DNA of 47,726 nucleotides, taken from sequence record OL362274.1; one strand, 5' to 3'. The translations under genes and the position numbers were made by a program. Origin of the DNA: Escherichia phage HC6. The notes below the pieces were generated by a model that worked only from the letters and a program-made list of their open reading frames with translations, was not told the DNA's origin and did not search any database. Below, in pieces: positions 27,745 through 34,918 of the stretch (position 1 is its first letter; every line of letters starts with the position of its first letter).

Positions 27745-27745
<1 letters not shown>
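25370..27745 (+). CDS. tail tape measure protein
   Basis: 791 aa, Ala/Gln-rich helical repeats, Gly/Ala/Thr-rich hydrophobic stretch near C-terminus. Confidence 0.9.
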
Positions 27746-31549
<3,804 letters not shown>

Positions 31550-31588: not shown

Positions 31589-34168
31589 ATGGCTACCGTA
31601 CCAACAAATAATCCAATCCCAAGCGAAGACCCGCGCGATCTGAAATTTAATGCCGGTAAGATCGACGAGGTAGTGACATCTGATGCACATTACTATACCG
31701 ATCGCTTCGGTGTACGCCGCTGGACAATTGCTGGATTCCAATACACCGCAGAAGAAGCAATCCGTAACTACGGTTACATAACAATGGACAGCTTCGAAGA
31801 TGGCGCGACACTGACGCTTCCCAATCAGACACTGCGTTATGAAGCGAACGGAGAATATTACCGTTGGGATGGGGAGTTTCCAAAAGTAGTGCCCGCTGGT
31901 TCAACTCCAGACAGCACGGGTGAGGTTAAATTAGGAGCGTGGGTTAGTGTTGGTGATGCGTCATTGCGCGCCGATATTGCAAAACCAACCGGAACAAATT
32001 TAATTGGCGCAAAAAACGGGGAAACACTGTCTACAGTCCTGGGTAGTCGTTGGGCTAATTCGGGCGCAGATAAAAAAGAAATTCGTTTTGACCTGCCATT
32101 ACTATTCCCAGATTACGATGCGATTCTGGCGGCACACCCTGACTGGACGTTTATTTATCCAGGGTCATTCTGTATCGGGGATGATGGCAAAATCTATATT
32201 GCATACGGCCCAAGTAATAACGCAGCGACGGAACGTTTCGTTGTAGTTTACTCAGGGGAAGGTGAATACTTAGGGTATCTCCAGACTAATAATGGAGGCA
32301 CCGGGGTAAATGGTTCTGCGGTATCCGAGGGGATTATCGTAACCAATTACTATGGTTCACTTAAGTTATTCCTGGGATCCTACGATGGTAACTTAGCTGA
32401 GTTTGATATCTCAGCGGTGACCTACGGCACCACGATTAGCTATACAGCCTTGCATCAGGTAGGTCTGTATAACCAGTTCTCCTTCCACAATGGAATGTGG
32501 GCAGTTGAACAGGCCATCCCAGCGTTGGGCATTAACCGCCAACGTAATGCTATTGCGTACTTCAACTCCGCATTTGCATTAACTGGCTTCACGGAATTTT
32601 CTCCGTATGACGCTGGATACATCACGGAAACTACTACTGATTATGGGTCACTTCAAACTAAGCGACAAGCAATCTGTTTAGCTCCTGGTGTTTTGATTAT
32701 GGCATTCGGTGGTGTGTACATTACAGGAACAACTGTAGAAGCGCCTACTAATTATCAGGGGGTAAAAGCGTTCAGCACCGATGGGCACAAAATGGTAGAG
32801 GCAGTAATTCCTCCTACTGGTTTTATTAGTGTCCTGGATGCTAAAGGCTTAACGACTTCTCGTATAGAGAATGAGGGCATCTGCTATTCAAATGGTGAAG
32901 TGTTCACCTTATGGATCTATAACGACCGAACCACATCGAATGCGTATACGCATGGAATCCTAATTACCAAAGAGTATTCCAATTTCCCGGACTTGGATTT
33001 TTCTGCGGTGACAACGGTATCCCCAGGTTACGATACCATTCGGATGGCTTCTGGGGTTTATCCACGAATTCTCGCAGGCGACGTACTCTATAACCCTCTG
33101 ACCGGTATTGCCATGACTTCGTTGTCAGCAGTATTGGACTTTATGCGATTGTCCGGGCAGAAGGCAGTTACTATCTATACATCAAGCACCGGTCTTACAG
33201 ACCTGGCTGGAGTTGCCTACCCAATCGGGATAGAGCTTCATATTAGCAACCTGAATAACCAGAGCTTCTCTATAGATCAGACCGGGCCAACTACCCGTAA
33301 AACTGTTCGTGTTACTTATGACACCTCCGGTTACACAGTAGTTACTGCGGCTACTGGTTTGGAGACTTACCGTTTAACTTTAAACAATACTGACTCTGGG
33401 TCTTTAACTCAGGGGCGTATCGCTGCCAGAGCTTTCGGTAACACAACTTTAACCGAAGCAGAACAGATTCTTGTCCTCGATCAACAAAGTTCCGCATCTG
33501 CACATTCTCTTATTTTAGGTGGCGGCTCTTCATTATTTAAGAGTGCTACGACTATTAGTTTTGCTACTAATCCGTCGCCCGCAACCCTAGGTGGCACTAT
33601 TCGATGGCGTTTAGATGATACATCTCTACGTCCATACACAGATAATGCTTACAATTTAGGTAATCCATCATTACGTGTGGCTCAAGTATTCGCGGCAATT
33701 GGTACTATTAATACGTCTGATTCCCGTGAAAAAACTGATCCTTCTGAAATATCGGATGATATCCTTGATGCCTGGGGCGATGTACAGGTGATCACTTATA
33801 AGTGGTTAGCTTCTATCGCATCTAAAGGGGAGGACTCTGCTCGTTGGCATTTTGGGGTAATTGCCCAACAGGTTCGTGACACGTTCATCAAGCATGGATT
33901 GGATGGTACTGCCTTTGGCCTGCTTTGTTACGACGAGTGGGAAGATGAATATGAACCTGAGTTCGTTGATGAGATTGTTACTGTTAATATTGATGGTGTC
34001 GATACCGAAGTTACCCGTCAAGTGGAAACCGGTAATACCCTACTTACTAGAGCTGCCGGTAATCGCTGGGGCATTCGTCCCGATCAGTGTTTCTGGTTGG
34101 AGGCCGCTTATCAGCGACGCCGCTGTGATCGTATTGAAGAGCGATTAAAAAAACTGGAGGCTAAGTAA
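31589..34168 (+). CDS. tail fibre / tailspike with C-terminal intramolecular chaperone (peptidase S74-like)
   Basis: 859 aa; AAGGAG RBS; C-terminal region (DSREKTDP...RWHFGVIAQQV...WGIRPDQC) resembles endosialidase-type self-cleaving chaperone. Confidence 0.75.
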   Translation: MATVPTNNPIPSEDPRDLKFNAGKIDEVVTSDAHYYTDRFGVRRWTIAGFQYTAEEAIRNYGYITMDSFEDGATLTLPNQTLRYEANGEYYRWDGEFPKVVPAGSTPDSTGEVKLGAWVSVGDASLRADIAKPTGTNLIGAKNGETLSTVLGSRWANSGADKKEIRFDLPLLFPDYDAILAAHPDWTFIYPGSFCIGDDGKIYIAYGPSNNAATERFVVVYSGEGEYLGYLQTNNGGTGVNGSAVSEGIIVTNYYGSLKLFLGSYDGNLAEFDISAVTYGTTISYTALHQVGLYNQFSFHNGMWAVEQAIPALGINRQRNAIAYFNSAFALTGFTEFSPYDAGYITETTTDYGSLQTKRQAICLAPGVLIMAFGGVYITGTTVEAPTNYQGVKAFSTDGHKMVEAVIPPTGFISVLDAKGLTTSRIENEGICYSNGEVFTLWIYNDRTTSNAYTHGILITKEYSNFPDLDFSAVTTVSPGYDTIRMASGVYPRILAGDVLYNPLTGIAMTSLSAVLDFMRLSGQKAVTIYTSSTGLTDLAGVAYPIGIELHISNLNNQSFSIDQTGPTTRKTVRVTYDTSGYTVVTAATGLETYRLTLNNTDSGSLTQGRIAARAFGNTTLTEAEQILVLDQQSSASAHSLILGGGSSLFKSATTISFATNPSPATLGGTIRWRLDDTSLRPYTDNAYNLGNPSLRVAQVFAAIGTINTSDSREKTDPSEISDDILDAWGDVQVITYKWLASIASKGEDSARWHFGVIAQQVRDTFIKHGLDGTAFGLLCYDEWEDEYEPEFVDEIVTVNIDGVDTEVTRQVETGNTLLTRAAGNRWGIRPDQCFWLEAAYQRRRCDRIEERLKKLEAK

Positions 34169-34395
34169 TGCATGATTTTCCCCATTATTACATGCGGGGG
34201 CCGCTGTCATTATCCAAAGCGGAATTGGCATTGTGTTAGGTATGTGGGGTGCAGGAGGCGCGCCAATATACCTTGGTGGGGTGGATTCGACTGGCGAGCA
34301 TGGGACTTACCTAGTCTATTGGATTAGTTAGTACCAGTGTTAGCATATACTGTAGTTTGGGTTATTACGGCTTATATTTCCTAACAATAATCACT

Positions 34396-34425
34396 AAACC
34401 CCGCTTCAGCGGGGTTAGTTTTATC
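34396..34425. terminator. bidirectional hairpin terminator
   Basis: AACCCCGC-ttca-GCGGGGTT between convergent tail fibre and SSB genes. Confidence 0.5.
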
Positions 34426-34426
34426 A

Positions 34427-34918
34427 TCAGAAGGGAATGTCATCATCGAAGTCCATCGGAGTCTCATTGCCTCCTTGTTGGCTTTGTTGTTTTGGTTGCT
34501 GCTGTTGTTGTCGTTGCGGTTGTTGGCCTGATTGCTGGCGTGGTTGTTGTTGCCCTGCATCATCCCGCTTTCCACCAAGCATCTGCATAACACCGCCCAT
34601 CTGTGGAATTACAATCTCCGTTGTATATCGGTCAACTCCATTGCTGTCAGTCCACTTACGAGTGCGAAGTTGTCCTTCGATATAAACCTGCGAGCCTTTG
34701 CGAAGGTATTCTCCTGCAACTTCTGCAAGTTTTCCGAAGATGACCACGCGATGCCATTCAGTCTGCTCTTTCTTTTCTCCTGTCTGCTTATCTTTCCACT
34801 GCTCAGATGTTGCAACAGAAAGATTGGCAATTGCAGAGCCTGATGCTGAATATTTAACTTCAGGGTCGTTACCAACTCGACCAAGGATTATGCACTTATT
34901 AATACCAATCGAAGACAT
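34427..34918 (-). CDS. ssb: single-stranded DNA-binding protein
   Basis: 163 aa; OB-fold-like N-terminus, Gln/Gly-rich linker, canonical acidic tail DFDDDIPF. Confidence 0.95.

Follow-up and report, generated by a model that had tools for sequence, protein, structure and literature searches.

A probable modular tail spike in an Sf11/Skate/IME207-like coliphage: an exchangeable propeller cassette with an S74 chaperone on a lineage-specific anchor

The window examined here, the 47,726-nt sequence record OL362274.1 of Escherichia phage HC6, carries a tail spike (or tail fibre) gene whose two ends have disjoint relatives among phages. Apart from a 23-nt rotation, the window equals the complete genome of Escherichia phage 6947 (ON637251.1, 47,726 bp), and the phage is referred to as 6947 below; in ON637251 the spike open reading frame (ORF) bears the product name 'hypothetical protein'. 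The encoded protein is very probably a modular homotrimeric spike of an Sf11/Skate/IME207-like siphovirus, in which a swappable propeller cassette with an S74 chaperone is mounted on a lineage-specific anchor. In the proposed architecture, the N-terminal helices (approximately residues 1-60) would dock on the adaptor helix of the distal tail protein, with six trimers per tail by analogy to Sf11, and the Tail_spike_N domain would close the anchor. Past a hinge near residue 160, a five-bladed propeller of the Gp45 type would recognise a host surface glycan and possibly also cleave it. A small beta domain and a stalk would follow, and the 150-residue S74 chaperone would drive folding of the stalk trimer before removing itself by Ser710/Lys715 autoproteolysis between T709 and S710. 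Everything distal to approximately 31883-31965 would form the exchangeable cassette, limited on the 5' side by the conserved end of Tail_spike_N and on the 3' side by a conserved terminator hairpin.

The mosaic structure is readily apparent from the homology pattern along the gene, obtained after setting aside the near-identical carrier siphoviruses 6947, HC8A, ST1UNAM and ZCEC08. Gene nucleotides 1 to ~380 match only the backbone siphoviruses (IME207, Skate, Bas81 and Sf11, 82-88%). The distal part matches three groups only: nucleotides ~253-2550 match Kayfunavirus (T7-like, 85-92%), nucleotides 271-2580 match Gamaleyavirus PBM-2/3 (99.4%) and nucleotides 478-2559 match Cbunavirus EK8 (88%). 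Pairwise alignments place these matches, in window coordinates, up to 31965 for IME207, where similarity resumes at 34386, and at 31859-34496 for PBM-3, 31841-34138 for U8 and 32066-34147 for EK8. At the 5' side, identity to IME207 is ~93% as far as 31965, and identity to PBM-3 is 100% starting at 31883; over 83 nt the sequence is thus both backbone-like and module-like, and the crossover lies inside 31883-31965. This zone codes for the conserved end of the Tail_spike_N domain. The first-pass annotation had proposed a conserved anchor of about 200 codons followed, from about 32200, by a horizontally acquired receptor-binding region, and had named shared closest relatives of the two halves as what would speak against it. 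By homology the halves have different closest relatives and the mosaic stands, but the anchor comprises ~126 codons and the junction lies ~235-320 nt upstream of the proposed boundary.

Exchange at this site is further illustrated by the phages that share only one of the two parts. The tail-gene block upstream of the spike is 88-91% identical to that of many small siphoviruses (Sf11, IME207 [Shuimuvirus], Skate, Bas80 and many Salmonella phages), and the full spike gene occurs in only 4 of the 417 backbone-matching records. IME207 combines the same anchor with another module, a K1F-type endosialidase with a near-identical endoNF chaperone, and Sf11 combines it with an Sf6-like spike module. 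In protein searches, the central domain is also found behind other anchors, among them the P22 head-binding domain and the T7 tail N-terminus; in one metagenomic protein, a propeller-plus-chaperone domain that is 37% identical stands behind a P22 head-binding domain. The same cassette sits on a T7-type gp17 anchor in Kayfunavirus and on two Schitoviridae anchors, a gp66-type one in Gamaleyavirus PBM-2/3 and another in Cbunavirus EK8. No copy of the propeller was found in 5,426 complete E. coli genomes searched for prophage copies, in which the S74 part alone gives matches (68-77%), and the IMG/VR viral contigs, queried with the propeller protein, yielded no confirmed relatives.

On the 3' side, a 258-nt non-coding stretch separates the spike from the convergent ssb gene (34427-34918, minus strand, stop-codon end at 34427). 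The first ~210 nt of the spacer (34169-34378) are carried by 6947, HC8A, ZCEC08, ST1UNAM and PBM-2/3 and by no other phage record; the spacer accordingly travels together with the module, and it is possibly what is left of a donor genome. Backbone homology to IME207 restarts at 34386. The terminator sequence recurs in phages of Ackermannviridae (Kuttervirus) size, in Gamaleyavirus pSb-1 and in Kayfunavirus CLBP1. As flanking sequences are shared in this way, homologous recombination between unrelated phages is possible. The spacer itself is G-rich in places and contains ORFs of 51 (34172-34327) and 32 (34233-34331) residues; none is convincing, the former being the largest wholly inside it. 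It has no Rfam family, with merely sub-threshold matches on the terminator hairpin, and ARAGORN reports no tRNA. Its fold, terminator included, is slightly better than that of shuffled sequences (z=-2.4) and not compelling.

The direction of one transfer can be read from PBM-2/3, in which the entire spacer, the terminator and ~70 nt from the ssb 3' end are present at 96-99% identity. In the 450 nt past the PBM-3 spike stop codon, nucleotides 1-328 match the 6947 group, with nucleotides 228-328 matching the ssb 3' end of many Jersey-like siphoviruses (91%), and nucleotides 340-450 match native Gamaleyavirus DNA (St11Ph5, Bp4, pSb-1). The N-terminus of the PBM-3 spike and the DNA upstream of it are native Gamaleyavirus as well. 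With a piece of a siphovirus ssb gene left in a podovirus, the direction of this transfer is from a 6947-like siphovirus to Gamaleyavirus PBM-2/3; it would be the most recent event. The suggestion of a horizontally exchanged distal region is supported, with the caveat that the sole transfer with a readable direction runs out of this siphovirus lineage.

Table 1. Coordinates of the tail spike gene, its parts and associated features in the window
Feature	Position	Strand	Basis or remark
Distal tail protein, 157 aa, presumed docking partner	27745..28218	+	E=1.8e-99 to Sf11 gp17 residues 1-155 (9OCC chain C)
Tail spike / tail fibre gene, 859 aa	31589..34168	+	ORF list; PHROG tail spike/fibre families, E down to 2e-88
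Lineage-specific anchor, aa 1-98, including N-terminal helices	31589..31882	+	Sf11 gp13 match; 87% DNA identity to IME207 through 31965
Tail_spike_N (PF18668), aa 63-123	31775..31957	+	Pfam, E=1.2e-19
5' crossover zone, 83 nt, encodes FPKVVPAGSTP...GAWVSVGDAS	31883..31965	+	Base-by-base comparison
Five-bladed beta-propeller, presumed receptor-binding (possibly catalytic), aa 160-470	32066..32998	+	AlphaFold2 model, Foldseek
Small helix-plus-beta-sheet domain after the propeller, aa 500-586	33086..33346	+	AlphaFold2, moderate confidence, pLDDT ~55-79
Presumed trimeric stalk, aa 587-709, with D685, R696, T709	33347..33715	+	PDB sequence matches to 9vvr, 7y5s, 4uw8, 3gw6 stalk and chaperone
Predicted scissile/nucleophilic Ser710 codon (T709/S710)	33716..33718	+	Aligned with endoNF S911 (Ala in 3GW6) and T5 pb1 S1264
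Peptidase_S74 chaperone, aa 710-859 (150 aa), release predicted	33716..34165	+	Pfam and PDB sequence matches
Non-coding spacer	34169..34396	+	First ~210 nt only in the 6947 group and PBM-2/3
GC-rich terminator hairpin between convergent spike and ssb, 3' cassette boundary	34397..34416	.	Terminator scan
3' end of backbone ssb, ~70 nt, non-coding scar in PBM-2/3	34427..34496	-	PBM-3 match to the window runs through 34496
HNH endonuclease gene, 172 aa	34918-35436	-	Between ssb and recombinase gene

For the anchor, the closest structural counterpart is the Sf11 spike gp13 (9OCC chain G), to which residues 1-150 align with E=8e-70; residues 1-29 are identical, R16 and K19 among them. The Tail_spike_N domain scores 70.6 bits against a gathering cut-off of 25, and its region gives PDB sequence matches to the CBA120 tailspike proteins (TSPs) 4oj5, 5w6h and 5w6f; PF18668 is the N-terminal domain type of CBA120 TSP1 and G7C gp66. 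The presumed docking partner, the distal tail protein, is 94% identical to Sf11 gp17 over 155 residues, and in its adaptor helix E129, E136 and E147 are kept, with D152 replacing E152. According to the cryo-electron microscopy of Sf11 (9OCC), spike residues 4-59 form a bundle with the adaptor helix of the distal tail protein, each tail bears six spike trimers, and there is a hinge close to residue 162. Sf11 gp17 has 457 residues with a large C-terminal appendage, and the 6947 protein covers residues 1-155 only; the next two ORFs after its gene encode 156 and ~149 residues. The Sf11-type appendage is either lacking in 6947 or encoded separately or by recoding.

The central domain was modelled with AlphaFold2 as part of a full-length monomer built from nine sequences, of which only residues ~160-470 are interpreted. 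Over most of this range the predicted local distance difference test (pLDDT) score is 80-94, and the 20 strands are arranged in the model as the five-bladed beta-propeller 'platform' of receptor-binding proteins (RBPs) of the phi11 Gp45 type. The top Foldseek matches are the RBPs of NF5, 80alpha and phi11, and the best viral model match is a Staphylococcus phage tail fibre (E=1e-33); phrog_22693 is among the PHROG matches counted for the propeller reading. Other five-bladed propellers among the structure matches are glycosidases. The invariant polar and acidic residues of the propeller are E247, E307, Q308, R319, D341, K358-R359-Q360 and R425-I-E-N-E-G430; on conservation, they constitute a candidate sugar site.

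At the C-terminus, the homology to known stalk and chaperone structures is extensive. Residues 610-709 are homologous in sequence to the stalks of 9vvr, 7y5s, 4uw8 and 3gw6, and the AlphaFold2 monomer has pLDDT below 50 there; a weak End_tail_spike match covers residues 675-709 (E=0.067). Peptidase_S74 (PF13884) is recognised at residues 710-771 with 55.1 bits against a gathering cut-off of 22 (E=9e-15). Residues 675-859 match the endoNF stalk and chaperone 3GW6 with E=5e-38; the chaperone matches 3GUD with E=4e-21, and its full-length homology extends to 4UW8 as well. The serine and the lysine five positions downstream, S710 and K715, are present in all seven S74-bearing homologues and correspond to S911/K916 of endoNF and S1264/K1269 of T5 pb1. 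D685 (-25), R696 (-14) and T709 (-1) stand at exactly the expected offsets; the spacing of D685, R696, T709, S710 and K715 is that of D1239, R1250, T1263, S1264 and K1269 in T5 pb1. Four of the five catalytic residues are identical in all seven domain-bearing homologues, the exception being P0007, which has Ser for the Thr that precedes the serine. In the mechanism proposed for endoNF and T5 pb1, roles are assigned to the Asp, to an Arg from the neighbouring chain and to the Thr, Ser and Lys, and cleavage is gated by correct folding of the trimer (PMC4690869). By this alignment, cleavage between T709 and S710 is predicted to free exactly 150 residues, in full agreement with the earlier suggestion of an S74-type chaperone in the last 150 residues.

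The compositional evidence is of a different kind from that first described. It had been stated that the gene and the spacer after it are visibly more A/T-rich from about 32200 onward; the G+C content is 47.8% at 31589-32199 (codons 1-204), 45.7% at 32200-34168 and 45.5% in the spacer, and the window as a whole averages 46.6%. Within the G+C distribution of same-length windows, either part of the gene lies ~37% in from its own end, and G+C at third positions is 0.41 and 0.40, respectively. The best G+C change point within the gene is not significant (permutation p=0.755), and the sliding G+C profile is also without signal. The description of the first ~200 codons as genome-typical and GC-rich is not confirmed: the genome is not GC-rich. 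The codon-usage check gives the opposite outcome, and the frequent TTA, ACT, TCT and AAT codons are confirmed: their joint share is 13.4% (88/655) in codons 205-859 vs 5.9% (12/204) for codons 1-204 (Fisher p=0.0026), and the 43 other ORFs give 5.5% (p=4e-13). The change is also seen in the synonymous fractions (TTA 34% vs 11%, ACT 43% vs 25%, TCT 34% vs 17%, AAT 67% vs 48%). The signal is a preference for T-ending codons at unchanged G+C, misread by eye as lower G+C; the compositional signal lies in codon choice and third-position T (T3).

This preference is concentrated in the last 292 codons (568-859), in which the four codons make up 55% of the Leu, Thr, Ser and Asn codons and T3 is 0.46. 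Among 235 equal-sized windows from 11 other genes, the corresponding values are 0.20 on average with a maximum of 0.31 for the four-codon fraction and 0.28 with a maximum of 0.39 for T3, so that the spike exceeds every comparison window in both. The compositional shifts do not coincide with 32200 either: an A-minus-T skew change point is located at ~32081 (p=0.005), and T3 jumps from 0.32 to 0.46 at codon 567 (window position ~33289, 0/300 permutations as high), where a T3-rich block begins just upstream of the stalk. The first 126 codons show the usage typical of their own genome and fit it best. In a comparison with three genomes, the best fit of the C-terminal third is to Gamaleyavirus and that of the central part (residues 127-567) is to 6947, and assignment of a donor by codon usage was dropped, the two results being inconsistent. 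A separate junction at codon ~567 was likewise dropped: stalk and chaperone have at most 56% protein identity outside the cassette group, and a recent separate exchange is not visible.

Some of this evidence could be accommodated without any import. The cassette might be native to the siphovirus lineage and exported only, its odd codons stemming from protein composition or selection. The only polarised event is indeed an export, to PBM-2/3; the central part fits 6947 usage slightly better than that of U8 or PBM-3; and distal spike modules on this backbone are generally T3-rich, that of IME207 included, so that T3 may be a property of the protein and not of a donor. However, only 4 of the 417 backbone records have the cassette, relatives hold unrelated modules at the same site and no other backbone genome contains the spacer. 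Furthermore, the last 292 codons lie beyond all comparison windows in T3 and in the four codons and fit Gamaleyavirus best, and the spike genes of 6947 and ST1UNAM/ZCEC08 are 98.5-98.7% identical vs 94.3% for the flanking tail genes. Taking these observations into account, a native, export-only cassette is improbable. Chance compositional variation in a vertically inherited gene, which would dispense with a mosaic altogether, could draw on the uniform G+C, the non-significant change point and the overall synonymous-usage distance of the spike gene, which ranks 11 of 13 long genes; it is refuted for practical purposes by the sharp breakpoints with different partner taxa on each side and by a distal codon outlier beyond all other genes.

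A further alternative concerns function, namely that the protein is an endosialidase (endo-N-acetylneuraminidase) degrading the K1 polysialic-acid capsule. Relatives in ST1UNAM, ZCEC08, PBM-2/3, U8 and ZCEC02 are annotated in this way, the C-terminus matches the endoNF chaperone as described above, the domain order mirrors that of endoNF, and the host of PBM-3 is an avian pathogenic E. coli (APEC) of type O1:H7 ST95. The ST95 lineage often carries K1. Against this, the model has five blades, not the six of the sialidase propeller (endosialidase, GH58); the Pfam scan of the spike returns no endosialidase catalytic family, only the sub-threshold stalk match; and the K1F endosialidase structure comes 24th in Foldseek, with template modelling (TM) scores of 0.13-0.15. 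An endosialidase is thus very unlikely, and the 'endo-N-acetylneuraminidase' label on the relatives was, most likely, carried over on the strength of the stalk and chaperone, which are shared. Tentatively, the propeller cassette may instead represent a class, as yet uncharacterised, of receptor-binding or depolymerase domains in phages of Gram-negative bacteria. Such a class would be kin of the staphylococcal platform that binds wall teichoic acid, would fold with the aid of S74, would recognise a glycan of its own (an O1-type polysaccharide, possibly, or another surface polysaccharide of extraintestinal or avian pathogenic E. coli) and would be systematically mislabelled as endosialidase.

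The modular spike can be compared with several known systems. EndoNF of coliphage K1F (gp17; 1V0E, chaperone 3GW6) has the same order of parts, a particle-binding N-terminus, a propeller, a trimeric stalk and S74; homology covers the chaperone and the final section of the stalk, with the Ser/Lys, Asp, Arg and Thr catalytic set at the same positions. In contrast, endoNF has six blades, shows weak whole-model similarity (to 1V0E) and uses a T7 gp17-type anchor instead of a siphoviral one. With phi11 Gp45 (5EFV; also the 80alpha and NF5 RBPs) the propeller fold is shared at an identity of only ~10-12%. In Gp45 the N-terminal stem is an iron-bound coiled coil, the C-terminal tower is duplicated and S74 is lacking, whereas the 6947 spike has an Sf11-type anchor, Tail_spike_N, stalk and S74; it lacks the stem and tower, with a single small beta domain (aa 500-586) past the propeller. 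The ligand of Gp45 is GlcNAc on Gram-positive wall teichoic acid. Sf11 gp13 shares the anchor and the distal tail partner, and the two spikes each have a hinge or domain boundary close to residue 160, but its receptor part is of the Sf6/P22-like beta-helix endorhamnosidase type without S74, and its distal tail protein has 457 residues against 157. T5 pb1 (4UW8) shares the C-terminal S74 and the identical spacing of the five mechanism residues; its receptor domain, a bullet-shaped, oligomannose-binding beta domain, is unrelated, and it is a long fibre.

The general pattern has a precedent. In the available text of Pas, Latka, Fieseler & Briers (2023, Virol J 20:174), anchors cluster by taxonomy and receptor-binding domains (RBDs) are exchanged across genera, Kaguna-, Kayfuna- and Gamaleyavirus among them, with conserved 44/95-nt motifs where the anchor ends. 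The 6947 spike shows both features, an anchor that follows taxonomy and a cross-genus RBD. The spikes treated in that text are O-antigen-specific beta-helix proteins, and neither an Sf11/Skate/IME207-like backbone nor the propeller cassette is named there; in the present case, moreover, a scar of donor DNA reveals the direction of one transfer. A literature search, which was not exhaustive, found no paper on coliphage spikes that combine a five-bladed propeller with an S74 chaperone.

Several points weigh against the modular reading or limit it. The claims on this protein rest on computation, and the papers that name the phage or its host strains give no receptor data: in the AEM paper, 6947 serves as a cloning control, and the only UCS strains named in the eLife paper are others. 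The AlphaFold2 monomer is poor at residues 1-158 and 586-859 (mean pLDDT 54.6), and for this reason we infer the stalk fold and the trimer from homologues. The propeller may only bind glycan, as proposed for Gp45, for which no enzymatic activity is reported and sugar binding in the central cavity is merely modelled, or it may also cleave, as GH43-type propellers do. Both junctions correspond to the motifs of Pas et al. (2023), as given in the available text, by position, length and taxon distribution only. Finally, of the three genomes, it is 6947 whose codon usage the central part fits best, which limits what can be said on the ultimate origin of the cassette.

Regarding the setting, phage 6947 comes from a phage-therapy collection and its isolation strain is an E. 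coli from a clinical collection; the ON637251 record gives Houston wastewater as the source and E. coli UCS2 as the host. A table in AEM 2024 lists 47,750 bp for 6947 and 47,726 bp for HC8A, and the GenBank records give the opposite assignment. Upstream of the spike lies the baseplate hub gene (829 residues). The HNH endonuclease gene, between ssb and the recombinase gene, lies in the most A/T-rich stretch near the spike (G+C 0.37-0.41). IME207 lacks this gene, with erf directly after ssb, and a gap in the ST1UNAM match, which covers 69% in two pieces, suggests its absence there as well; the Klebsiella phages KlebP_265 and BUCT541 have it at 93% identity. It looks like a mobile homing endonuclease insertion. 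Within the cassette, identity swings between adjacent 150-nt bins at 33341-34090 (74%, 93% and 99% to EK8; 83% and later 97% to U8), and these swings suggest further short patches of gene conversion or recombination among cassette variants. IME207 (listed host Klebsiella; spike L004, 4001-6931) carries a genuine endosialidase-type module on the 6947-type anchor. The spike homologues of Kayfunavirus ECG4 (MN218775.2) and LS3 (MN518893.2) are labelled 'peptidoglycan lytic exotransglycosylase', and the translation given for the ECG4 product (P0009) looks scrambled and frame-shifted; these oddities are probably sequencing or annotation errors.

Module swapping is a known route of host-range change in phages, and the case is ordinary biology in a previously unannotated gene; its useful specifics are the precisely placed junctions, one transfer between families whose polarity is known and a database label that is probably mistaken. 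The label 'Endo-N-acetylneuraminidase' is probably wrong and could mislead the prediction of K1 specificity. As a lesson of method, the apparent A/T-richness was a bias for T-ending codons at constant G+C. The defined junctions (31883-31965; terminator 34397-34416) are concrete splice points for host-range engineering on this backbone, a use that the Sf11 authors propose for the anchor and adaptor. The ssb scar in PBM-2/3 offers a clean case: the sequence itself tells which way an RBD moved between families. If the cassette does form a receptor-binding class of its own, its spread over this siphovirus lineage, Autographiviridae and Schitoviridae, together with that scar, would constitute a traceable natural transfer of a host-range module between virion architectures.

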